From a virus (taxonomy: Duplodnaviria > Heunggongvirae > Uroviricota > Caudoviricetes): 64,000 nt of DNA. Below the pieces are notes generated by a model. It ran no database searches. It was given only the letters and a program-made list of their open reading frames with translations, and was not told the DNA's origin. The stretch's first letter is position 1, and each line of letters starts with the position of its first letter. The stretch is taken from positions 40,400-104,399 of IMG/VR virus record IMGVR_UViG_3300006145_000007; one strand, 5' to 3'. The translations under genes and the position numbers were made by a program. Of the stretch, positions 1 to 61,702 are shown piece by piece.

Positions 1-1
1 C

Positions 2-226
2 GCAGCGGGGTGGGTCAACAACCAGCAGGTCGTCAGCATCAGCGGTCTGACTGCGAACCAGAACGGTATCGCAGGTCTCTCCCAGGATATTTCCCAGGCT
101 GAGTTCGAGGCAGCAGCAAACGCGGAGATGCGTATCTGCGCTCAGGCCGATGGGTCATTCACGGTTGTGTATCACGGAGATAAGCCGGGGTGCGACATCC
201 CAATCACAATCATCATTCTGGACTAA
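2..226 (+). CDS. 3'-partial small protein whose C-terminus (..GDKPGCDIPITIIILD) is paralogous to the next ORF; tail-module accessory protein
   Basis: Open frame running into the window and ending at TAA 224-226; C-terminal ~60 aa align with the C-terminus of the 243-647 product. Confidence 0.4.
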   Translation, partial: AAGWVNNQQVVSISGLTANQNGIAGLSQDISQAEFEAAANAEMRICAQADGSFTVVYHGDKPGCDIPITIIILD

Positions 227-242
227 AAGGAGGCGATAGCGT

Positions 243-647
243 ATGAGCACAACACCGAACTATGGCCTCTATGTGACAGACGATGTGAAGGAGAAGGTCA
301 AGGAACTGCTGGAAAAGATGAGCAACACGACTGACTCCAACATGGTCAAGATCGATACGGCTCTCGGTGAGAAGGCCGACCACAGTTCTGACGTGACTCT
401 GACGCTGGTGTCTTCTGGTTGGTCAGGCGTGTCTGCTCCGTACACATATGAACTGAGTGTGGCTGGACTGAAAGCAAATCAAAACGGGCACATCGAGGTG
501 GCGCACAGCGCCACATTTGAACAGCGTCAGATGGCACGGGAAGCAATCCTATGCGTCACTGGACAGTCTGATGGCAAGATCATCATCTCTGCGGATGGTG
601 AGATGCCTGAACTGGACATCCCGGTCACCATCGTCATGCTGGACTAA
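243..647 (+). CDS. small hypothetical protein, tandem paralog of the upstream partial ORF (ends ..ELDIPVTIVMLD)
   Basis: 134-aa ORF with AGGAGG-like RBS at 229-235; paralogy to the preceding ORF; directly upstream of the tail fibre gene. Confidence 0.5.
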   Translation: MSTTPNYGLYVTDDVKEKVKELLEKMSNTTDSNMVKIDTALGEKADHSSDVTLTLVSSGWSGVSAPYTYELSVAGLKANQNGHIEVAHSATFEQRQMAREAILCVTGQSDGKIIISADGEMPELDIPVTIVMLD

Positions 648-670
648 TTTGAGATAAAGGAGATATCAAT

Positions 671-2935
671 ATGCCTATTCTTGGAAATTTCCCCGCTGGT
701 GGCGGTGGAGGCGGCACAGGCGGACTGGCATTGGCGGCGGTGACTAATATCGCCACCGTAACCGCGCACGAGAAAGTGTATGTCAGTTGGACTGACCCGA
801 ACGATCTGGTAGTGGCAGGCTCTACTCTGGCCGCGTGGGGAGGCACCCTGCTGGTGCGTAAGGCCGGCAGCGCTCCCGTGAGCCGCAGGGACGGCACGGT
901 TGTTCTTGACAGCAAGACACGCAACCAGTACAGCACTACCTACTTCTGTGATTCCGGTCTGACTGACGGCGTGACGTACTACTACAAGTTCTTCCCCTAC
1001 ACTACAAGCAGCACGTACACAGACAGCACGGACGATGAGTTCACCGCGACTCCTGCCGCTGTCGCCCCAGGTAATGTGTCCGGCATGAGCGCAGTCGCTG
1101 CCGGTAACGGGAAGATCACTGTGCAGTGGGGTGACCCAGCCGCCACTGTTGTGACGGACGGTATCACCGTGTCCACCTGGGCAAGCACGCAGGTCGTGTA
1201 TAAGGCCGGGAGCTATCCGACTGACCCGTCAGACGGCACACTGGCACTGAACAGCACCACACGCAACCAGTATGCCACCAACGGCTTTACCATTACCGGG
1301 CTTACGAACGGTACCACCTACTACATCGCCTTCTTCCCGACATCTACCGACGGCGCCGTGAACACCGATACAGCGAACCGCGTGGCCGGTGTTCCGAACC
1401 GGCTCGTCATCAACGATATCCCCGCGCAGAGCGGGGCTCTGACATACAATAAGTCTCCGCAGAACCCAGTGTGGGACAGCGCATATAACCCCGCCATCAT
1501 GACACTGGGCGGCGAGACTGTCGGAACCAACGCGAAGACATACGTGGCTACGTTCACCCCGGATGACGACCATGTATTCGCCGGCGAGACAGCACCGAAG
1601 GCCAAGAATGTATCGTGGGTAATCGGCAAAGCAACCGGTACACTGACGCTCACACCAGCTTCTCTGGTTCTGGACAAGACCACGACAAGCGCAACCTTCG
1701 CCATCTCCGGGGACTTCGATGGCAGCTACACTGTCACGTCGATGGATACCAGCATTGCAACCGTGGCTCTGGTGAGCGGTAAGACATACCGTGTCAGCAG
1801 TGTGAACAGCACGACCGGCACCGCTTCTATCAAGGTGAGCTGCTCGGGCGGCAGCAACTATACCGCCCCCGCCGACAAGTCTGTGAGTGTGACAGCGAAG
1901 TTCGTTACCATCTATGGCGTGAGCTGGGATGGTTCGAGTACCACGAAGTGGTCTCGTACAGATGCATCAGCCAGCTTCACAGATCCTGTGCCTGCTGTTA
2001 GCAATGGGAACGGCAGTTCCCCGTTCGACAGCCTGCAGCCATGGGCCGGAATGGTCAAGGATACTTCTGACAGCGCTGCCGGCGTTCTGGTGAAGATTCC
2101 GAAGTTCTGGTACAAATGGACAAAGAGCGGCAATACGTTGAAGCTCCAGATTGCAGACGGTCAGGTGGACGGGTTCAATGTTTCTCCCGCGCACGCCAAC
2201 AGGGGCGATGGCAAGGGTGAGCGCGACTTCGTTTACGTTGGGCGGTATCACTGCGCGAGTGGGTATAAGTCCACCACAGGCGCCGCACAGCAGGTAAATA
2301 TTACACGGTCAACAGCGCGTTCCAGTATTCACAATTTGGGTGCAACCATTTGGCAGTTCGACTACGCTATGCGCGTGACGATTCAGATGCTCTATCTGGT
2401 CGAGTTCGCCGATTGGAACTCTCAGGCAAAGATCGGCTACGGCTGCTCTGCCGGTGGCTCCAAGGAGAACAATGGCAAGACCGATGCTATGCAGTATCAC
2501 ACTGGTACTACTGCGGCAAACCGGACAACCTATGGCTACACGCAGTACCGCAACATCGAAGGTCTGTGGGACAACGTTTACGACTGGATGGATGGTTGTT
2601 ACTACAACGGTAACGGCATGAACATCATCATGAATCCCGCCAATTTCTCTGACTCTTCTGGCGGGACTTTGATCGGTAAGCCTTCCAGCGGTTGGCCTTC
2701 TGCTATTGCTGTGGCTACCGCAAGTGGTCTGGAGTGGGTGATCTACCCCACTGCGGCAAGCGGTTCCGAAAGCACATACGTCGCGGATGACTGGTACTAT
2801 AACGCTTCCTACCCGTGCCTGTTCTGTGGGGGTGACTACGGCCAGTACCAGAGCCACGGGTTGTTCTACGTGTACTACAACGGCGCCAGCAGCACGTACG
2901 CGTACATCGGCTGCCGCCTCCAAAAACTCCCCTAA
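671..2935 (+). CDS. tail fibre / receptor-binding protein, DGR target: Gly-rich N-terminus, two FN3-like repeats, Ig-like segment, FGE/DUF1566-like C-type-lectin fold C-terminus carrying the variable region
   Basis: RBS AAGGAG at 657-662; repeated motifs ..TRNQYSTTYFCDSGLTDGVTYYYKFFPYT.. and ..TRNQYATNGFTITGLTNGTTYYIAFFPTS.. (FN3-like); C-terminus ..DDWYYNASYPCLFCGGDYGQYQSHGLFYVYYNGASSTYAYIGCRL is matched by a downstream template repeat. Confidence 0.85.
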   Translation: MPILGNFPAGGGGGGTGGLALAAVTNIATVTAHEKVYVSWTDPNDLVVAGSTLAAWGGTLLVRKAGSAPVSRRDGTVVLDSKTRNQYSTTYFCDSGLTDGVTYYYKFFPYTTSSTYTDSTDDEFTATPAAVAPGNVSGMSAVAAGNGKITVQWGDPAATVVTDGITVSTWASTQVVYKAGSYPTDPSDGTLALNSTTRNQYATNGFTITGLTNGTTYYIAFFPTSTDGAVNTDTANRVAGVPNRLVINDIPAQSGALTYNKSPQNPVWDSAYNPAIMTLGGETVGTNAKTYVATFTPDDDHVFAGETAPKAKNVSWVIGKATGTLTLTPASLVLDKTTTSATFAISGDFDGSYTVTSMDTSIATVALVSGKTYRVSSVNSTTGTASIKVSCSGGSNYTAPADKSVSVTAKFVTIYGVSWDGSSTTKWSRTDASASFTDPVPAVSNGNGSSPFDSLQPWAGMVKDTSDSAAGVLVKIPKFWYKWTKSGNTLKLQIADGQVDGFNVSPAHANRGDGKGERDFVYVGRYHCASGYKSTTGAAQQVNITRSTARSSIHNLGATIWQFDYAMRVTIQMLYLVEFADWNSQAKIGYGCSAGGSKENNGKTDAMQYHTGTTAANRTTYGYTQYRNIEGLWDNVYDWMDGCYYNGNGMNIIMNPANFSDSSGGTLIGKPSSGWPSAIAVATASGLEWVIYPTAASGSESTYVADDWYYNASYPCLFCGGDYGQYQSHGLFYVYYNGASSTYAYIGCRLQKLP
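2779..2921 (+). repeat. DGR variable region (VR) at the 3' end of the tail fibre gene
   Basis: 143-bp near-identity to 3274-3416; 17 substitutions, 16 of them where the other copy has A; variable codons are AAC in the partner copy. Confidence 0.85.
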
Positions 2936-2946
2936 AGGAGGGGCGT

Positions 2947-2968
2947 GGGGAGGGTCGCAACCCTCCCC
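2947..2968 (+). promoter_or_regulatory. GC-rich hairpin (9-bp stem GGGGAGGGT/ACCCTCCCC, 4-nt loop CGCA) 26 nt downstream of VR; DGR homing hairpin/cruciform candidate
   Basis: Perfect inverted repeat read directly; position and size match hairpins reported 3' of VRs in DGRs. Confidence 0.55.
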
Positions 2969-3056
2969 ATCATGCAGCCTAACGAACAATTAAATGGCGG
3001 TAATCGCCATAAGCAACCATGACTTCCTATGTAGACGAAGACACCATATGCTCACA

Positions 3057-3083
3057 GGGGGGGGGGGGGGGGAAAGGGGGGGG
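3057..3083. repeat. homopolymer tract G16-AAA-G8 in the VR-TR spacer (with C9 at 3116-3124)
   Basis: Read directly from sequence; potential G-quadruplex or slipped-strand tract, or a sequencing/assembly artefact. Confidence 0.9.
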
Positions 3084-3273
3084 CACCAAATTGGCCCGTT
3101 CGGCGGGACACGCAACCCCCCCCCATGAGAGGCGGCGTCTTTGGACACGCTACACCCCTCCATGTGAGGCGGTGTCTTTTTGCATCTACACACAATTCAA
3201 TCGCATAAACGGCATGTTTTATACATGCCACGGGATTGCCTACGCAGCAGTCGCTGGTTCTTTTAATTGGTGC

Positions 3274-3416
3274 CGTCGCGGATAACTGGAACTATAACGC
3301 TTCCAACCCGTGCCTGCACTGTGGGGGTAACTACAACCAGAACCAGAACCACGGGTTGTTCTACGTGAACTACAACAACGCCAGCAACACGAACGCGAAC
3401 ATCGGCTGCCGCATCC
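3274..3416 (+). repeat. DGR template repeat (TR), adenine-rich (AAC codons) copy of VR
   Basis: Homologous to 2779-2921; carries A at nearly all positions that differ in VR; lies between target gene and RT as in canonical DGRs; the 69-aa ORF 3236-3445 is just the TR read in frame. Confidence 0.85.
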
Positions 3417-3655
3417 TTGTTTTCGCCAGACCTCACCAGAGGTAACGGGCGAGTGCTTGGTTAGCACAATTTCGGTAGAACGGGCTCCTCACCCTTTCTA
3501 TAAGGGCTGTCGTGCGTATATCGCACGGCACCCTTGGCGCGGGCAATCGCGTGCCCCTTGGCAAAGATTAACCGATAGGACATGGGTTAGTACCTCCTGT
3601 GAAAGCGGGACGTGGGAAAGCTCATGAGGTTACAAGGAGGATATTGTAACTCCTT
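3417..3655 (+). ncRNA. TR-RT spacer, probable structured 3' part of the DGR template RNA (priming region)
   Basis: Several local palindromes (CGTGCGTATATCGCACG, GGCGCGGGCAATCGCGTGCC); no ORF; position equivalent to the Sp region of the BPP-1 DGR RNA. Confidence 0.35.
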
Positions 3656-4771
3656 ATGAAACGTACAGCACATCTATACGAAGAACTCATTTCCCACGAC
3701 AACCTGATGCTCGCACTAATTGAGGTAAACGCGAGCCACAGGTGGCTCCCTAAGCACAGGCCAAACAAAATTGTTGCATGGGTCGAGCAGGATATGGAAG
3801 CCCGTGTGAATGAGTTGAGAAAGATCATCGAACAGATCGTATACCACAAGAGACAGCTATCCAAACCAAAGCAGAAGCAGCGTTACGATAAGAGCGCAGG
3901 CAAGTGGCGCATTATCAACGAGCCGAAGCTGTGGCCCGACCAGTATATCCATCACGCACTCGTGCAGGTGCTGCAGCCTACCATGATGCGTGGGATGGAC
4001 AGGCATTGCTGCGGAAGTATCAGATCGCGCGGTATCCACTACGGCAAGAAGAAAATCGAGAAGTGGATGGATACGGATGCGCGCGGAACGAAGTATTGCG
4101 AGGAACTCGACATACATCATTTCTACGACAGTATCGACCCGAAGTACATTATGGCTCGGCTCAGATGCCTTATCAAGGATTGGCGCGTGTTGAAAATCTG
4201 CGAGGAGATCCTGCGTTACGGCGTGCTGATTGGTCTTTACACATCCCAGTGGTTTGCGAATACACTCCTGCAGCCACTCGACCAACTCATTCGAGACAGC
4301 GGATTCTGTACTCACTATCTCAGATATATGGATAACTTTACCATATTCGGGAGCAACAAGAGGAAACTCCACAAGCTGAGAAAGCTAATTGAAGAATGGC
4401 TTGCAGAGGTCAATCTGTCGTTGAAGGAGAACTGGCAGGTGTTCCCGACTAAGAGCCGTATGCCATGCGCGCTTGGATACAGATTCGGTAGAGGCTATAC
4501 CTTACTTAAGAAAAGGAACCTGTTCCGGTTGAAGCGGAAGCTCAACGAGTATTACAGGCGCCGGCGGAAGCACAGGAAGATCTCTGCAAAAATGGCAACA
4601 GGTCTGATCTCAAGGCTTGGTCAACTCAAGCATTGCAGCAATAAGAATGTCTATGAAAAGATCTATCACGGCAAGGTTCAAAGAGAACTGAAGCAAGTGA
4701 TTCGAAATGATATGCGAAAGGAGCGATTAACGTGGAGTATGTATTTGGAACAAACAGCTATAGCGGCGTAG
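3656..4771 (+). CDS. DGR reverse transcriptase
   Basis: RBS AAGGAGG at 3636-3642; DGR-RT hallmark motif GLYTSQWFANTLLQPLD (cf. Brt SLTSQLFANVYGG); motif A ..IHHFYDSIDP..; motif C reads LRYMDNFTIFG (YMDN instead of YMDD). Confidence 0.9.
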   Translation: MKRTAHLYEELISHDNLMLALIEVNASHRWLPKHRPNKIVAWVEQDMEARVNELRKIIEQIVYHKRQLSKPKQKQRYDKSAGKWRIINEPKLWPDQYIHHALVQVLQPTMMRGMDRHCCGSIRSRGIHYGKKKIEKWMDTDARGTKYCEELDIHHFYDSIDPKYIMARLRCLIKDWRVLKICEEILRYGVLIGLYTSQWFANTLLQPLDQLIRDSGFCTHYLRYMDNFTIFGSNKRKLHKLRKLIEEWLAEVNLSLKENWQVFPTKSRMPCALGYRFGRGYTLLKKRNLFRLKRKLNEYYRRRRKHRKISAKMATGLISRLGQLKHCSNKNVYEKIYHGKVQRELKQVIRNDMRKERLTWSMYLEQTAIAA

Positions 4772-5018: not shown

Positions 5019-5609
5019 ATGACAATGAAGATGGACAAGAATGATGTGGCGCGCCTGTATGAGAATCGTATGATCTCTGCCGTCGGCGTGCTGAACGCGA
5101 TCCGCAGCAAGTGGATCACCACCGAGGATGCGGTTGAAATCCTTGGGTCAGACAATGCACTCAGCGTCATCAGATCCGCGAAGCTCCAGGAAATCTCAGA
5201 GGCGTGCAACAATACAATCGTTGCCGGCATCGACGTGGTGATCGGCGACCGGACTGATCACTTCAACCTCGCTCTGGAGGATCAGAGCAACATCAATAAC
5301 TTGTTCCGCGTCGTGGAGCTGGGCGGTACTGAGTACCCATACCAGGCAGACGACGGGACATGTACCGTGTATAGCAAGCAGGAAATCGTTCAGATCTATA
5401 TCGCCGCCCAGACTCACATCACGGTCAACACCGCGTACCACAATGCGCTCAAGGCGTATCTGCTGTCTCTGGAGGACACCGATGTGATCGGCGCAATCGA
5501 GTATGGTATGGAGCTTCCTGCGCCATACGCCGAGGAGTTGGCTACCAAGCTGGGTGTCGCCGAGAATCAGATGCAGATGATCGTGGCGAAGCTGAGCGAG
5601 GTGGGATAA
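5019..5609 (+). CDS. hypothetical protein
   Basis: 196-aa ORF, coding-like composition, tight spacing with flanking ORFs. Confidence 0.5.
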   Translation: MTMKMDKNDVARLYENRMISAVGVLNAIRSKWITTEDAVEILGSDNALSVIRSAKLQEISEACNNTIVAGIDVVIGDRTDHFNLALEDQSNINNLFRVVELGGTEYPYQADDGTCTVYSKQEIVQIYIAAQTHITVNTAYHNALKAYLLSLEDTDVIGAIEYGMELPAPYAEELATKLGVAENQMQMIVAKLSEVG

Positions 5610-5759
5610 CTATGCACACCAAACTGGTGGAGATACTTTCGGATATCTGCATCAGGCAGGCGTCTGTCATCAAAGACCAAGCATTTGCTCTCGCTGCACT
5701 GGGAGCGGAAGTACGAGAGGACGAGGCGGCTGCTTTGCGCGACCTCCTCCGTTCTCTGA

Positions 5760-6230
5760 TTGGAGATTGGAGTGATGATGATGGAAAAGAGTAAGCTGAG
5801 CAAGTGGGTGCTTTCCGGGCTTCTGTGGGTGTTCGGCGGCACCCTCTACTTCTATATGGAGGTTATGTGGAAGACGCTGAACAGCAGACCAGAGTCAATC
5901 AGTTGGACGATGCTGACACTGGCGATGATCCTGTGCATCCCTCTTGAACGATTCGGGAGTGAACTGCCATGGAACTGCCCACTGCTTTTGCAGGCGTCCA
6001 TCTGTACTGTAGCAATCACAGCAACCGAGTTTATCGCCGGGTGCATCCTGAACCTCTGGCTCGGCCTGGGGATTTGGGACTACTCAAACGTCCCGTTCAA
6101 TATCCTTGGGCAAGTGTGCTTGGCGTTCTCCGGCGTATGGTTTGCGCTGTCGATCTTTGCAATCATTCTGTTTGACTGGATACGGTACATCGTGGAGGGC
6201 GGAGAGAAACCGCATTATCGCATTGTATGA
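5760..6230 (+). CDS. integral membrane protein (3-4 predicted TM helices)
   Basis: Hydrophobic segments LSGLLWVFGGTLYFYMEVMW, TMLTLAMILCIPL, VCLAFSGVWFALSIFAIILF. Confidence 0.5.
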   Translation: MEIGVMMMEKSKLSKWVLSGLLWVFGGTLYFYMEVMWKTLNSRPESISWTMLTLAMILCIPLERFGSELPWNCPLLLQASICTVAITATEFIAGCILNLWLGLGIWDYSNVPFNILGQVCLAFSGVWFALSIFAIILFDWIRYIVEGGEKPHYRIV

Positions 6231-23505: not shown

Positions 23506-24459
23506 CTAAAATAAAAGATGCTCATAATCGAGCATCCTGAAGTAGATCTTGTCTCGTTCCCACCGCTTGCAGATGATGATGTCGCCCTCACGAATTGGGT
23601 CTTGGTCGAACCTCTTCTTGAACACTGTCATCCTGCTTTCCTTTCCGCCCCCTATGGACTGTGTCAGGACGCTGTATCCAAACACCTCGTTGTCCTTCTT
23701 GCGGCGGACAGGGTAGACATTGGTGATGAAGAGTTTGTTGCGGTCACATTCCTCACCAGACACATAGCCTGCGTATCCCATGATGTCCCGGAAGTTCTTG
23801 GCCTTCATGAACACGGACAGGTCGTTGACATGTGATCCCTTGATGAAGTGTTCAATGTCATGCAGAAGCTCGTCCATCTCTGTGATCGTGTAGCTCTTGG
23901 CATCTTCACCGCTTTTGGTCTTACCAGTTGCACACTTTTTGACGATGCGCTCCAGCCACGTCCCGTCAATGTTCTCCTTGCGAATCTTCTTCGCGTCACC
24001 CTTTTTGAAGAGTTCAAACATCTCAATAATCTTGAACAGCTCACGCTGGTTACCGAACATCGAGAAGTAGTCGATCTTAATCAGTATGTCGAGCTGTCTG
24101 GAATCAATGGACGTTTTGGTGTTGATGTCACGGAGCAGGTCAATGAAGTAGTCGTAGTGGTTGGACTTTGACAGCGCATACAGCTCGTCCGCCCCGGCCA
24201 TACTCATATACTTGACGCTGCTGACACCTTTTGCGATGACATTCTTTTCTTTGTCAAAGAAGTATTCTCCCTTTGACACACCGAACTTTGGCTGGATAAT
24301 CTTGATGCCGCGCTGACGAGCCAGCATTGTTCCGTTCTGGATATCATCTTCGTTGGCGGCGTTGTTCAGGAACGATGTGATAAATTCGATTGGGTTGTAG
24401 TACCGATAGTAGGCACACAGGTACCCAAGCAAGCAGTACGCAACCGAGTGGTTATCGCG
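23506..24459 (-). CDS. dnaE: DNA polymerase III alpha subunit, exon 2 (C-terminal fingers/OB region)
   Basis: Conserved ..NHSVAYCLLGYLCAYYRYYNPIEF.. (cf. E. coli ..[25 protein letters not shown]..) continues upstream of the annotated TTG start to 24459, implying splicing rather than an independent start. Confidence 0.7.
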   Translation of the reverse strand, partial: RDNHSVAYCLLGYLCAYYRYYNPIEFITSFLNNAANEDDIQNGTMLARQRGIKIIQPKFGVSKGEYFFDKEKNVIAKGVSSVKYMSMAGADELYALSKSNHYDYFIDLLRDINTKTSIDSRQLDILIKIDYFSMFGNQRELFKIIEMFELFKKGDAKKIRKENIDGTWLERIVKKCATGKTKSGEDAKSYTITEMDELLHDIEHFIKGSHVNDLSVFMKAKNFRDIMGYAGYVSGEECDRNKLFITNVYPVRRKKDNEVFGYSVLTQSIGGGKESRMTVFKKRFDQDPIREGDIIICKRWERDKIYFRMLDYEHLLF

Positions 24460-25326
24460 TTGACCCGCTGTTTCCAGCGGCGCAGACTATATCTTCGGCC
24501 TTAGCCGTCCTTGCACTTCCAGCGGAAACTCATCCTCCGCCGTACTCCCTCGCGGGATAGTCGTTACACCTTCCGATATGGCTCCCACGCAAAACCTCCA
24601 GCCGAGTATGCGCGCAGGCTGATACATTGCAGTATCGCTCTCGCGCTTATACCGGTCTCACGCTCCGCTTCTGTGGCGGAACTATATACCTCAATGATGT
24701 CGCCGTCCTCTGTCATCTGAATGACTGGCGTACCTTTTGGTTTGCGCAGGTTGTTATATAAAGCGTGCAGGTTATTGTAGCTGTATGTAGTCCATTCCAG
24801 ATTGCTGACATCGTTGTTTGTCTTATCCCCGTCAATATGATTGACCATCGGATACCCATATGGGTTTGGAATGAACGCGGTGGCGACCAGGATATGTACC
24901 AGTGCCACATTAGATGTTCCGTCCCGGCGAAGGTTGACGACCATATAGCCGTTACCATCCTTGCCCTTGGTACGGGTCAGCTTCATCTCTCGTCCACGTA
25001 GGCGCCTTGGGTTTCCTTTCCTATCTATAACCGTGCGGTCTACACTTCTGACGTGGCCTGAGTCGCTGACTTCATAATACCCTTCATAACCTTGTATCGC
25101 TTTCCAGAGCATAAACACACCTCTCTGATCGGCTTGGCACGGTATCGCCTGCTATCCGTTGCCGGACCGTAGGTTCTCTTAGTCAGATGCTTCGTCCTTG
25201 GTGATGGCGCATATCTCCCTGTAGGGCTTCATGCGCCGGTCTTATTCATCTGATACCGTTAGCACCGCTCTAAGCGGCACACCCCTGAGTCATAGGGTTC
25301 ACAAGAAATGAGCTAATCACTAACCC
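24460..25326 (-). mobile_element. intervening sequence (~867 nt) splitting dnaE, group-I-intron-like, carrying an HNH homing endonuclease ORF
   Basis: Exon 1 homology ends ..ASAYMF| (5' exon ends in U) and resumes |RDNHSVAY..; exon-1 frame reads through 18 codons into a stop; HEG ORF inside. Confidence 0.55.
24564..25118 (-). CDS. HNH homing endonuclease (NUMOD4 + HNH_3-like)
   Basis: ..GYEGYYEVSDSGHVRS.. NUMOD4-like N-terminus; ..HILVATAFIPNPYGYPMVNHIDGDKTNNDVSNLEW.. HNH core. Confidence 0.8.
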   Translation of the reverse strand: MFMLWKAIQGYEGYYEVSDSGHVRSVDRTVIDRKGNPRRLRGREMKLTRTKGKDGNGYMVVNLRRDGTSNVALVHILVATAFIPNPYGYPMVNHIDGDKTNNDVSNLEWTTYSYNNLHALYNNLRKPKGTPVIQMTEDGDIIEVYSSATEAERETGISARAILQCISLRAYSAGGFAWEPYRKV

Positions 25327-27564
25327 AAACATGTATGCGGATGCGTCCTCAATGATCTTGAGGAACTGCTTGGCCTCCTCCTCCGCAACCTCTCGCGGAT
25401 GTTCTGACTTATCGCAGTACCCGTTGAGGATGACTGGCATCCATTCATCGAGGAGTTCCATCTTCTTCTTTGCGATGCCGCGCCGAACAGAGTCCGCCTG
25501 GCTTCCATTCAGGCCGCAGATACGCTGCAGGAATTGAATGATATCCTCCTGATAGACAAGGTATCCGAGGTTATCCTTCAGAAGCTCGTCAATCAGTTCA
25601 GACGGATTGTGGTTCTGTACTCTGGCGAGGAGCTGCTCACGATAGGACGCTCCAGACGGTCTGATACAGGCTGTCACCAGAGACATGTCGAAGATACTGT
25701 GGGTCTTGAACTTCTTCAGACTGTCGAACGCGAAGTTACCCTCCATCTGGAAGATACCGACAGGGCTTTTCAGCATGTCCTCCCACACGGCATCGTCGTT
25801 CCAGTCAATCTCATGTGTCTTCGGATATGGCCTGTTAAAGTACGAACAGCAGTCGCGGATGACCTGGACGGTCTTGAGTACCAGGAAGTCATACTTGGCA
25901 AGCCCAGCCTCGTGTGCTTCGTCCATGTCCAGCATGAGGCAGTTCTCTCCGTCCTTCTCAAATATGCCATAGTTATCTACCAATGTAACAGGACTGATAA
26001 CCATGCCGGCAGGGTGGACGGACTGCGAAACTTTTACTCCGAACATCCCCTTGACGAACCGGAATAGCTCCGGGTACTTCTTGGTGGTCGGAACCTCACA
26101 CACCTCGTCGAGGTGTTTCTTGTAGAGCTCGTCCTCAATCACGTCGTATTTGTCCAGAAGAACCTGCACGTCTGCGGCGAACTCCTTCTTGATGTCGCTG
26201 ATGCGTTCCAAAGACCACGGGTTGTCCTTTGATTCACCGTGTTTCTTCACCCACTCAAACGACAGGTGACGCCCAACGTCATCTATGACGCCACGACCTT
26301 TGATTGTACCGTATGATGCGACACGAGCTGTCTTGTCCGCCCCAAACCTGTTCGTGATGTACTCGAAGATTGCAGGGCGGTCAGCCTTCACAACGTCGAT
26401 ATCGATGTCCCCGATCTCCACACGATCCTCGTTACAGAATCGAGAGAACACGGTATGCCATGTCTCGGGGTTGAGGTCGATGATGTCTGTCACATATGCG
26501 ACCCGTGAACCTCCGACAGAACCACGGGCTGTGCCTATGGCCATACCCTGTTCTTTGCACCAGCAAATGAGTTCTGACATGGAACCCATGAACCCCATCA
26601 TGCCGATCTTGTGGAAGACCGCCATCTCTTCGTCGATTGCGGTACGGAATGCTTCTACCTGCTCAGGCGGAATCACACCGCTGGCTACCTTCTCATTGAA
26701 CATCCTATCGACACGCTCAATGAACTTTTCCTCGTCAGCTTCCTTCGACCCATATAGGATAGGATACTTGATAGACGTATCCACCTCGAAGTTCTCAACC
26801 ATATCGTCCAGGAGGTTTGTGTTCGCGATTGCTTCCAGGTACACATCTTCATCCAATGCGCCCTGCTTGGCGAACATATCCACCAGTTCGTCGTAGGTCT
26901 TGAACGTGAGATCGAATGTGTCCTCGTCCCCGTAGGTCTTGCGCTTCGCGCCGAGAAGGATCTGCCGGCACTCAGCTTTATACGGAGATGAGCTGTGGGT
27001 GTCTGTGCCTGCAATCAGCGGTGTCCCGAGTTCCTTTGACAGGGCAAGCAGCCGCCGGTTGAACGCATACTGCTCTGGATGGTCATGTGCCTGAACCTCA
27101 AAGAAGGTGTACTTCTTCGCCAGCTCCATGTACCGTGGATGCGTCACAGGCAGCTTATTGAGCGGAGAGGCGAGACACGCACTGGTAGATATGATGTTGC
27201 CTGAGATACCGAGGAACTCGTCAAAGGTGATGCGGTTTGTGTAGTAGAAGTGAGCCTTGTCACAGGACTTCCGAATCAGAAGGTTCAGCTCACGGATACC
27301 ATCCATGTTTCTGGCGAGCAAAACTGTATGGTAGTTGTCACGAATGCGTTCATTGCCCTCTGTGAACAGGCGCTCTGTCAGGTAAACCTCAACACCATAG
27401 ATGAACTTAATGCCCATCTTGTCGCAGTAGAGCTTCTTTGAAAGCCAACCACGCGGCAGGCCATGCTCTGTTGACGCGATTGCCTTCTGACCATTCTGCA
27501 CCGCAAGATCTACATACTCGCTGAACTTTGTGCAACTGTCGAGCAAACTGTAGTCTGAGTGCAT
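25327..27564 (-). CDS. dnaE: DNA polymerase III alpha subunit, exon 1 (PHP and polymerase core)
   Basis: N-terminal PHP domain ..MHSDYSLLDSCTKFSEYVDLAVQNGQKAIASTEHG..; ..GYLVYQEDIIQFL.. and ..ASAYMF.. match DnaE fingers. Confidence 0.8.
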
Positions 27565-33159: not shown

Positions 33160-34089
33160 TTAGGTGAACACTGCTTTCCAGCAAGCGTAGTCATCAAACA
33201 GATCCCGCCTCAATATCCCTGCCACCTTGCTCCTTGTATAGTTCGTGTGGTAGGTGCTTCCCATCTTACTGATATGGTCAGCTATCAGTGTATCAAAGTT
33301 GACTGGGTCTCCCATACGTTCCGCCTCGTATACTCTGTAGAACACACCAGACAGGCGGAGCTTGCCGTATGTCAGCTCAACATCATGCGCCTTGAACGCC
33401 TTTTGGATGATACTTTTCACCGTGTTCAGCTTGACCTGTTCTGATCTGATACCACGCATCAGATACTCTCCGGCGCACCTGTTTCTGGTCTGCTTGTAAC
33501 GCGGGTGTTCATAGACGAACTCTGTCGCGTCACATGCCATGCGGAACGCTGGTATCGCTTCACGGTACAGCTCATAGGACTTGCCGCCATGCTCAATCAA
33601 CATAGAGGAGAAGTCCACTTCGCTGACCTTGATGTCAAGTGCGTCCTCTTCTGTGATGCCGGCGAACGCCATCCATAGGTAGCACCTGTAGATACAGTCA
33701 ACCGTGTTGCTCTCAACAGGCTGGAACACCTTGTCCAATGTCGCCTGGAGATGCCTCGGAGATGAAACCATACGGCGCCTTATCTTTTCGTCCATCTGAG
33801 ACTGCACATCGTAGATAGCGTCACATGTCTCATATCCGTTGTCCTTACACCACACGACGTATGAACGGAGGAAGGCGACATACGAATCCATAGACCTTGT
33901 TCTTGCACCGAAGTTCCCGTTTATAATCTCCTGCACAGTCTCCAGAGGAAGCTCGCAGAAGTCGGTGCCGGCTGCCTCCTCATACCTTCCTGTTGTCCGG
34001 AACACAGAACGTCCGAAGTCTGACGAACTCCGCGTGCTTTCGATGAACTGTACCTTGCGCTCTTCGTTATACATACCCGTCCTCCTCAT
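33160..34089 (-). CDS. hypothetical protein, translationally coupled to the upstream MazF-like gene
   Basis: 309-aa ORF whose ATG overlaps the MazF-like stop (ATGA at 34086-34089). Confidence 0.5.
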   Translation of the reverse strand: MRRTGMYNEERKVQFIESTRSSSDFGRSVFRTTGRYEEAAGTDFCELPLETVQEIINGNFGARTRSMDSYVAFLRSYVVWCKDNGYETCDAIYDVQSQMDEKIRRRMVSSPRHLQATLDKVFQPVESNTVDCIYRCYLWMAFAGITEEDALDIKVSEVDFSSMLIEHGGKSYELYREAIPAFRMACDATEFVYEHPRYKQTRNRCAGEYLMRGIRSEQVKLNTVKSIIQKAFKAHDVELTYGKLRLSGVFYRVYEAERMGDPVNFDTLIADHISKMGSTYHTNYTRSKVAGILRRDLFDDYACWKAVFT

Positions 34090-40279: not shown

Positions 40280-40567
40280 CTAATCTTTTGTATAAATCCC
40301 GCCAGCAATATCAAGGTCGCCAACCGCCCGTATACCGAAAAGCCTAATAAATTTTTCGCCCTCCCACCAGTCATACAGAAACTCGATGTCGTCAAAATTT
40401 ATAGGGCTTGCAATCTCCTTATGCAAGTCAAATGTATTGCCGTCATATGAAGTTCCTATCGAAACAATAACCGTATCTGTGATATCATTGCGCTTCCAGT
40501 ATCTTTGAATGTACTCTCCTATTGCGTCATAACCAGATTGACCTTCTTTTAGTTTAATCTCAATCAT
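40280..40567 (-). CDS. hypothetical protein
   Basis: 95-aa ORF. Confidence 0.4.
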   Translation of the reverse strand: MIEIKLKEGQSGYDAIGEYIQRYWKRNDITDTVIVSIGTSYDGNTFDLHKEIASPINFDDIEFLYDWWEGEKFIRLFGIRAVGDLDIAGGIYTKD

Positions 40568-60574: not shown

Positions 60575-61702
60575 TTACCACCACATGGCCGGGAAAACAA
60601 TGGACCAAATTTTCTCAATCTCAGAGACATAGTCGTACTGCTTTTCATCATGGTCATTATACTCAGGCTTGAACGAAAACTCTAATCGCTCGATCATCAT
60701 GTCGATCATTTGTCTCTGTGTGTATTCTTTCCCGTTGTATTCAAATTTGTGGTAGTCCAAATTGACACAACACACATCAACAAATTTCTTCAGCCGTTCA
60801 TAGAGCCACAGGTGGAAAGTGAAGTCCAGATTCCAGGTTTCTCTTTCATCAAAACCGTACTTTGCTCGTTCCAAAGCCCAGGCTCCTTGCCGTTTATCGT
60901 CCATGTTCCAGGTGTCCGGCCGCTGTGTAACGCCGATATCATCCAGATACTTTCTCATAACAGGTTCTCTACGGGAAAATGACGGCATAGGCAAAAGTTT
61001 GTGGAGATTGTGGTCATGCATCTTGGTGATCTTATCGTCCAGTTCCTTATCTCCGGTCGTTCCGATCAGGATAAACTGATCGAGCTGAGCATATGTGAAA
61101 CCGAGATTGTCCTCGTCCGACTTGCCACACAGGCCATCGGATGGCGTTTTATCAATCAGGTCTTTTGGAATAGGAAGCTCATGCCCAATCTGGATGACCT
61201 CGCTCACCAGTAGGTTGGCGAGCGGGCTGAAGTCTCCGGCACTATCCCCAAATTTGGTGGAATACCCGACGAAGTCTTCAGACCTGTTGCAGGTGTTTGC
61301 CACACGCCCGCCGTTCGGGAGAGACTGAGCAACAGCGTAAAGCGTTGTCATACGGATACGGGCGGGGAGGTTCACCTTTGTCTGCTCACTAACCTCCATC
61401 TTGATACGGACTCTGAACAGGATAGAGTCAACAGGACTCTGAATGTTTACCATGTATGAGCGGATGCCAAGAGTCTCCACGATACGTTTGCTGTCATCAA
61501 TGTCGATCTGCTCACCACACGGCATCAAAACACCTACGACTCGTTCCTTCCCAAGAGCCTCGACGCAAAGAGCGGCAACAACACTCGAATCCTTTCCGCC
61601 TGAGATCCCGACCACGGCGTCACAGTGAGGTCCATTCGCATCAAAGTAGTCACGAATCCACTGGACAATAGCGTCTTTTGTTTGCTTTGGATTCTCCAAC
61701 AT
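60575..61702 (-). CDS. nadE: NAD synthetase-like PP-loop amidotransferase (NadE family) with C-terminal extension
   Basis: ..AVVGISGGKDSSVVAALC.. PP-loop at the NadE position; ~100-aa extra C-terminal region. Confidence 0.65.
   Translation of the reverse strand: MLENPKQTKDAIVQWIRDYFDANGPHCDAVVGISGGKDSSVVAALCVEALGKERVVGVLMPCGEQIDIDDSKRIVETLGIRSYMVNIQSPVDSILFRVRIKMEVSEQTKVNLPARIRMTTLYAVAQSLPNGGRVANTCNRSEDFVGYSTKFGDSAGDFSPLANLLVSEVIQIGHELPIPKDLIDKTPSDGLCGKSDEDNLGFTYAQLDQFILIGTTGDKELDDKITKMHDHNLHKLLPMPSFSRREPVMRKYLDDIGVTQRPDTWNMDDKRQGAWALERAKYGFDERETWNLDFTFHLWLYERLKKFVDVCCVNLDYHKFEYNGKEYTQRQMIDMMIERLEFSFKPEYNDHDEKQYDYVSEIEKIWSIVFPAMWW

Follow-up and report, generated by a model that had tools for sequence, protein, structure and literature searches.

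A predicted mobile IA2-type group I intron carrying an HNH endonuclease gene in the dnaE gene of a phage

Introns of the group I subgroup IA2 that carry HNH endonuclease genes are known from the DNA polymerase genes of several phages, including SPO1/SP82 (I-HmuI/II), Bastille (I-BasI), PhiI/W31 (I-TslI) and Pf-WMP3 (I-PfoP3I), and the subgroup is recognised by two helices, P7.1 and P7.2, which lie between P7 and the 3' strand of P3 and are linked by G-U-A (PMC3428280). Here, we describe an element in the polymerase gene dnaE on the minus strand of a 64,000-nucleotide (nt) stretch of a virus of the Caudoviricetes (positions 40,400 to 104,399 of IMG/VR record IMGVR_UViG_3300006145_000007; the whole stretch is hereafter the window). 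The gene is interrupted by 867 nt within the conserved motif ..FG-Y-NHS.AY.., and we consider it very probable, at roughly 90%, that these nucleotides represent a mobile phage group I intron of the IA2 type.

The element would thus join the classical IA2 introns with HNH genes found in phage DNA polymerase genes, with which it shares the P1-P9 core and the P7.1 and P7.2 helices linked by GUA (PMC3428280). Further likenesses are a replicative polymerase as host gene, a highly conserved motif as the insertion site, and an I-HmuI-like HNH gene that begins in the P6 region and extends into core sequence; the absence of P2 is shared with the introns of PhiI/W31 and Pf-WMP3 (PMC3428280). In contrast to those introns, which reside in genes for family A polymerases, the window element has a family C polymerase (DnaE) as its host, and it carries two extra hairpins between P3 and P4 as well as a large P5 domain, with splicing and nicking being predicted here from sequence. 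Assignment to IA2 is supported by the P7.1-GUA-P7.2 arrangement together with the lack of P2, the features used for this purpose in PMC3428280. The known workings of group I introns and of homing are left unchanged by the element.

Insertion boundaries and the joined reading frame

The gene is read in two pieces, an open reading frame (ORF) of 764 amino acids (aa; 27564..25270, minus) with the PHP, DNA_pol3_alpha and finger domains of DNA polymerase III alpha, and a downstream frame (24462..23506, minus) with an HHH_6 domain (all Pfam). A provisional joined protein, used as query, had thousands of DnaE matches; of the 120 listed, 118 have no interruption and measure about 1,040-1,080 aa, with the closest of those listed at 94%, 83% and 82% identity. 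The junction could be parsed in 117 of the 120 and reads ..(Y)(M/Q)FGYNHS(V/I)AY.. in 113, the other four being variant (FGFNHS, FNYSHS, LNYSHS), and the reading ..ASAYMFGYNHSVAYCLL.. is shared by homologs without the interruption (94%, 83% and about 70% identical). Every frame-open splice pair with a preceding U and a final intron G was enumerated, and because 25323/24456 is the sole U..G pair that yields this homolog sequence, the intron is placed at 25322..24456. Two pairs first favoured by eye, 25328/24458 ('MFDNHS') and 25322/24458 ('MFGFDNHS'), are ruled out by the homologs. Intron positions are numbered below such that nt n corresponds to window position 25323-n.

An empty site was available for direct comparison in the intron-less contig L001, which encodes the 94%-identical homolog. 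In blastn, the gene aligns to this contig in two blocks of ~86% nucleotide identity, which abut in L001 (5224 to 5225) and lie 867 nt apart in the window. The empty site, ..ACATGTTTGGGTATAACCACTCGG.., equals the joined exons of the window, GGGT/ATAACC (..YMFG-Y-NHSVAY..; a slash marks the insertion point here and below). The terminal intron base, G at 24456, is the only position fitting both the homologs and the empty site, and all same-site relatives shown likewise end in G. The same arrangement recurs at ~98% identity on four independent contigs (L002-L005), as well as on the IMG/VR contigs L021, L037, L041, L042, L065 and L068, so the interrupted dnaE is no assembly artefact. The protein of exon 1 falls in a cluster of 55 sequences, read on four contigs that come from four samples.

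Exon 1 ends in ..TAC ATG TTT GGG T, its final base being the U at 25323, and the junction codon, T/AT for Tyr, is split between the exons; the predicted junction of the joined exons reads ..ACAUGUUUGGGU/AUAACCACUCGG... The spliced frame comprises 1063 aa with a single, terminal stop, and its product spans 100% of the uninterrupted homologs, which measure 1039-1071 aa. Once the exons are joined, the PHP, polymerase core, finger and HhH domains found by Pfam in both pieces are colinear in one protein, and because ..FANYGFNKSHAAAYSLL.. of Taq DnaE aligns colinearly across the junction, the insertion site falls in one of the most conserved motifs of DnaE. Such a location had been claimed by the first-pass annotation, made from the window sequence before any search, which also had the interruption of dnaE by ~0.87 kb, the length of 867 nt and the upstream exon ending in U right. 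Its boundaries of 25327/24459 were, however, 4 nt away from the true limits of 25322..24456, and 'RD', which it took for homology, is intron sequence; the alignment with intron-less homologs that it had suggested is continuous across the site and fixes the splice pair 25323/24456.

Read-through from exon 1 meets an in-frame UAG 17 codons into the intron, and this stop bears on whether the insert could be some other intervening element, namely an intein or a group II intron, both of which are known in replication genes, with inteins occurring also in dnaE. With the exon-1 frame closed at this UAG, which sits in a hairpin loop, there is no continuous precursor protein for an intein; the insert holds neither a Hint nor a reverse transcriptase domain in Pfam, only NUMOD4/HNH; Rfam gave no group II match in the window at gathering or permissive thresholds, and a group II intron with an ORF would need more than 867 nt. 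Judged by the sequence, both are excluded, and the chance that we would assign to either is close to nil. The UAG occupies window positions 25270-25272 (intron nt 51-53) in the loop of the second P3-P4 hairpin, and in 4 of 6 examined relatives of the window's clade the same position holds a stop (TAG, TAA or TGA), the remaining two having it at the junction itself or 20 codons in. The recurrence in four of the six suggests selection for halting ribosomes ahead of the core.

A quite different explanation would be that a free-standing HNH gene has split dnaE into two separately translated polypeptides that reassemble, with no RNA splicing involved, and gene callers as well as the GenBank annotators of related phages do list separate proteins, while Rfam calls no group I intron at threshold. 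Such genes in pieces need a separate translation start for each piece, and the dnaE of the window does not provide one: the earliest ATG, GTG or TTG of the downstream frame is the TTG at 24432, 8 codons into exon 2, and a protein starting there would lose the conserved YNHSVAYC. That the downstream homology begins upstream of any start codon had been recognised in the first-pass annotation. The remaining evidence on this alternative comes from the structure of the insert.

Fold, covariation and guide pairing

The structure was placed by hand, guided by relatives found with blastn among sequenced phages, and a scan of IMG/VR with the P4-P5 motif added 79 loci. A group I core with the P3/P7 pseudoknot and the J8/7-P7 consensus GAAGAUAUAGUC, which matches RF00028 model positions 220-231, was found, and the features are collected in Table 1. 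By anchored extraction, P3 and P6, whose strands pair across the ORF, proved fully complementary in almost all complete loci, and this in many different sequences. Covariation was counted in alignment A2, comprising 20 sequences and 84 pairs; alignment A1 was left out of the counting because the 5' half of the Geobacillus virus E3 element was misplaced in it. In A2, 89.7% of cells are paired, as compared with 68.2% in shuffles (none of 500 as high), both sides have changed in 59 of the 84 pairs, and the covariation score is 0.563 against 0.173 in shuffles. Pairing reaches 100% in P3, 97.5% in P4, 94% in P5, 98% in P6 and 99% in P8, and P7 is invariant. For the IA2-specific helices, P7.1 is 100% paired with all four pairs covarying and P7.2 is 91% paired with all seven covarying, and the GUA linker between them (nt 778-780) is invariant in the 20 sequences. 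P1, P5b and P9 score lower because variable lengths make the alignment imprecise there. Additionally, the minimum free energy (MFE) fold of the ORF-trimmed window intron independently recovered every nested helix (z=-3.08), and P7 is missing from it because it forms a pseudoknot with P3.

The internal guide sequence provides a further line of evidence. Across 26 dnaE intron loci at the same site, the exon sequence GGNU and the guide GN'YC are complementary in every case, with a terminal U.G, in three variants: GGGU:GCUC (16 loci), GGCU:GGUC (8) and GGAU:GUCC (2). The variable exon base (position -2) is the synonymous third base of a Gly codon, and its Watson-Crick partner in the guide follows it; at the other dnaE site, 34 loci show NCCU:GGGN', also in three variants. 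By direct comparison, this guide-exon covariation supports P1 at the predicted splice site, and the locus illustrates cleanly how, in nature, a guide sequence covaries with the synonymous position of a codon. A guide that tracks the exon is not what two independently translated polypeptides would lead one to expect, and the same holds for the 312 non-coding nt, which are far more conserved and structured than spacers and carry compensating changes in helices across the ORF, as well as for ORF-less copies at the same site, which a free-standing endonuclease gene cannot explain. Genes in pieces are therefore highly improbable here, and the first-pass annotation's preference for a self-splicing group I intron with a homing endonuclease over two polypeptides is supported by these sequence-level hallmarks.

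For a group I intron, splicing would proceed as follows. In the transcript, the guide GCUCA would pair with the exon end UGGGU to form P1, with the U.G wobble at the splice site, and the core (P3-P9 with the P3/P7 pseudoknot) would bind free guanosine for attack after U25323. The freed exon end would then attack after the terminal G24456, joining GGGU to AUAACC and restoring the single 1063-aa DnaE frame. Unspliced RNA would give a 764-aa truncated protein only, owing to the UAG 17 codons into the intron.

Several observations weigh against this interpretation. By hand, P10 is weak or ambiguous, with 3-4 base pairs at best, and the two hairpins between P3 and P4 lie outside the textbook core. 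When pairing partners in A2 were slid by 1-3 columns, pairing fell to 33-44%, a control that somewhat favours the structure, this having been derived from the window sequence. In Rfam, the gathering threshold of RF00028 (50 bits) was not reached, and a search of the whole window at gathering gave only an RT-18 RNA elsewhere. At permissive settings, only the 3' core was found, with RF00028 positions 220-251 matching 24496..24466 (16.6 bits, E=0.2) over GAAGAUAUAGUCU and the GAAA-capped P9 hairpin (J8/7-P7-P9), and the 5' half gave no intron match at permissive E-values, only chance-level SAM and CRISPR-DR hits. The ORF-less same-site relative L073 had no Rfam match at E<=1, and the relative in Geobacillus virus E3 stays just under the gathering score with 48.7 bits.

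The Rfam match of the window copy is weak because the ORF and the extra helices break the model. Phage introns are reported to give, as a rule, partial RF00028 matches interrupted by an endonuclease loop, the model being incomplete for them (PMC11878797), and four related loci, including a Yersinia phage intron with a joined coding sequence (CDS) in its annotation, gave no match at gathering either. The ORF-less E3 relative matches RF00028 positions 1-253 end to end (E=1.7e-11), and since this homolog scores 48.7 bits over the full model, together with the covariation it fills the gap left by Rfam. The search for a group I core that the first-pass annotation had in mind thus came out weakly in Rfam, where the 3' core alone was matched, and the P3-P9 core emerged through relatives and covariation. 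As L073 remains without a match, the intron lineage of the window is effectively invisible to RF00028.

Three candidate features were rejected. A 5' strand of P7 at CUGACUA (intron nt ~137-143), with the ORF in P8, is ruled out by relatives that show GACUA (nt 761-765) after the ORF; a P5a helix GACC/GGUC would cross P5 and overlap P5d, and its pairing is disrupted in L037 and L068; and an S-element-like match at 61419 (plus strand) lacks further core features. In comparison with the window intron, L037 and L042 carry a 34-nt insertion in the extended P5 domain (A2 columns 151-184).

Table 1. Features of the interrupted dnaE gene and of its predicted intron in the window.
Feature	Window position	Strand	Intron nt or sequence	Basis or remark
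dnaE exon 1	25323..27564	minus		PHP, polymerase core and finger domains (Pfam); junction from uninterrupted homologs and blastn against the empty allele L001
Group I intron (IA2-type, predicted)	25322..24456	minus	867 nt	exact insertion relative to L001; structure and covariation
dnaE exon 2	23506..24455	minus	starts AT AAC CAC TCG..	covers NHSVAYCLLGYL.., HhH domain and C-terminal domains
Homing endonuclease gene (predicted), 182 aa	24564..25112	minus		NUMOD4 and HNH_3 (Pfam); in P6 loop; same ORF in sister contigs
Internal guide sequence	25309..25313	minus	GCUCA, nt 10-14	pairs with exon UGGGU as P1, U.G at splice site
5' half of ribozyme core	25128..25307	minus		per-helix pairing counts, MFE fold, identity to gaps in split phage dnaE genes
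3' half of core	24456..24577	minus		RF00028 match, covariation, identity to Yersinia T7-like phage intron region
P1			exon UGGGU and nt 1-3, with nt 7-14	
P3			nt 16-23 / 808-815	
Two hairpins between P3 and P4			nt 26-40 and 43-61	
P4			nt 65-70 / 178-183	
P5			nt 71-76 / 134-139	extended P5 domain
P6			nt 191-195 / 746-750	encloses ORF
J6/7			AAGGUGU	3' of the P6 3' strand
P7			nt 761-765 / 834-838	5' strand GACUA
P7.1			nt 766-777	GCGA loop
Linker between P7.1 and P7.2			GUA, nt 778-780	
P7.2			nt 781-803	
P8			nt 816-827	
J8/7 and P7 3' strand			GAAGAUAUAGUC, nt 827-838	after P8
P9			nt 843-858	GAAA loop
Terminal G			nt 867	

The endonuclease gene and predicted mobility

The first-pass annotation had placed a NUMOD4/HNH ORF at 24564-25118, and its domains are confirmed by Pfam (NUMOD4, 3.8e-14; HNH_3, 4.9e-8), but the start, listed by the ORF program as GTG 25118, is likely the ATG at 25112, which gives 182 aa, agrees with the gene calls on sister contigs and has GAGAGG a few bases upstream. 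The product matches I-HmuI (PDB 1U3E; E=4.4e-10 over residues 1-142), the nicking endonuclease of the SPO1 DNA polymerase intron. The last codons of the ORF overlap the 3' strand of P6 and J6/7, and its UAA stop abuts P7. As the sequence GUGUAACGACUA is kept in the ORF-less relatives shown (E3, L033, L073), the stop codon uses pre-existing core sequence. With its own putative ribosome-binding site, this I-HmuI-like gene in the P6 loop would be expressed as an enzyme that, by analogy with I-HmuI, nicks dnaE close to the insertion site in co-infecting relatives that lack the intron, and repair after the nick would copy the intron in (homing). The empty site of L001, ..ACATGTTTGGGTATAACCACTCGG.., is a candidate nicking target. 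Beyond such selfish homing, the endonuclease of the lineage might also act in competition between co-infecting phages.

Copies of the intron at the same dnaE site differ in their endonuclease content. ORF-less copies with P6 loops of 10-43 nt are found in L033, L045, L046, L049 and L073 (in the last at ~5400-5760), close DnaE relatives exist that have no intron (P0001-P0004), and others carry the intron with or without the ORF; this patchy distribution is the pattern expected of a homing element. In the IMG/VR contig L068, the P6 loop is 580 nt long and the frame to the usual stop is open for just 18 aa, a sign of endonuclease decay. The IMG/VR contig L041 has 195 codons open upstream of the stop, as in others, and its first Met gives 140 aa; the usual ATG appears to be lost, leaving a truncated start.

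Endonuclease decay of this kind in L068 and L041, together with the fact that splicing is predicted here from sequence comparison, would be compatible with an intron that has itself decayed and no longer splices, leaving dnaE as a pseudogene or the phage reliant on the host polymerase. In the window copy, however, every core helix is preserved, both exons keep open frames and encode a protein 94% identical to an uninterrupted homolog, and the joined frame has its single stop at the end. The arrangement also recurs, with the 55-member cluster and the four contigs from four samples already described, and the covariation implies selection on the fold. We accordingly regard a decayed, non-splicing intron as very unlikely.

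Relatives, annotation and neighbouring features

A megablast of the gene against the phage collection gave no match, and the relatives became apparent with blastn. In Bacillus phage G, Enterococcus EF1/EF5 and Staphylococcus SPbeta-like and Mammaliicoccus phages, the DnaE genes are split by unannotated gaps with 70-79% identity to intron nt 58-195, and this segment has further matches in gaps of Clostridium CS266P1-4 and Enterocloster phages. For the 3' part, the match (~72% identity) is with the intron region in the joined DNA polymerase CDS of Yersinia T7-like phages. A 304-nt element without an ORF, situated between the two tape-measure ORFs of Geobacillus virus E3, is matched by both halves of the intron.

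The introns of EF1/EF5, phage G, the SPbeta-like phages, Mammaliicoccus phi116 and CS266P1-4 belong to the same family as that of the window, with 5' cores 70-79% identical over about 135 nt. They share its helices and covariation and split a DnaE-type polymerase, usually with an HNH gene in the P6 loop, which in EF1 is annotated as 'HNH homing endonuclease # Phage intron'. Their site is a different one, before the catalytic ..LP/DIDIDF.., where a guide GGGN faces an exon NCCU. At the loci examined (L007, L008 and L011-L014, representing phage G, CS266P1/P3, EF1, an SPbeta-like phage and phi116), exon 1 ends in ..CCT/ and exon 2 starts with GATAT.GAT.., and the exons are mostly annotated as separate or hypothetical proteins.

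Enterocloster phage CB473P3 and its relatives (OP172753-57) carry a member of the same family at the same site and in the same phase as the window (..FG T/AT..HS.AY), with guide GGUC and exon GGCU. In contrast to the window, they have a short P6 loop, a large insert in P8 and a much more distant DnaE, and they are annotated only as hypothetical proteins, with the intron at FG/YNHS unannotated. A second interruption appears to lie upstream in the dnaE of this group. In CB473P3 itself (L010, OP172757.1; locus 1-4569), the DnaE-like gene is given as three hypothetical proteins and an 'I-HmuI' endonuclease; the family intron lies at the FG/Y site at about 2532-3123, and a second intron probably surrounds the endonuclease gene further upstream (842-1216), with a AACGACTA core motif at about 1222.

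Geobacillus virus E3 has a family member without an ORF, 77-83% identical to the window intron in two blocks, which differs from it in its host gene, in having a P2 hairpin and in lacking the extended P5 domain. Its 304 nt lie between gp42 and gp43 (L006 1446-1749; KP144388.1 ~33493-33796), and it appears to split the tape-measure gene into these two proteins, annotated as 'N-terminal' and 'C-terminal'.

Homologous introns, as identified by sequence, are thus already present in the dnaE genes of deposited phage genomes, one of them annotated as a phage intron, and our literature search found no dedicated paper on a dnaE group I intron in phages. Specific to the window element is its insertion at FG/YNHS, shared with the CB473P3 group, which gives a widespread intron lineage its second well-documented site in family C polymerases. 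As a tentative and rather doubtful proposal, these introns could form a distinct, largely unannotated phage group I lineage, marked by the lack of P2, two P3-P4 hairpins, a large P5 and IA2-type P7.1-GUA-P7.2, whose members Rfam misses at threshold and which may have moved among phages (those sequenced being mostly of Firmicutes) as the guide was retargeted to two catalytic dnaE motifs (P/DIDID and FG/YNHS) and to unrelated genes, such as that for the tape-measure protein. For annotation, two dnaE 'genes' and a gap would become one joined CDS plus an intron-encoded endonuclease, and the same correction would apply to the CB473P3 group, CS266P1-4, phage G, the SPbeta-like phages and many metagenomic contigs. 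Left as they are, split polymerases inflate gene counts and break protein clusters in GenBank phages and metagenomic contigs.

On sister contigs, the split dnaE adjoins a replication module with ERF, PD-(D/E)XK, DnaB, DnaG and DNA methylase genes. Elsewhere in the window, at 3552-3639 on the plus strand, Rfam reports an RT-18 RNA (RF03021) with 77.4 bits, well over its gathering score. RT-18 RNAs are structured and owe their name to an association with reverse transcriptase (RT) genes, and on account of this association the phage may carry an RT-based element, e.g. a diversity-generating retroelement.

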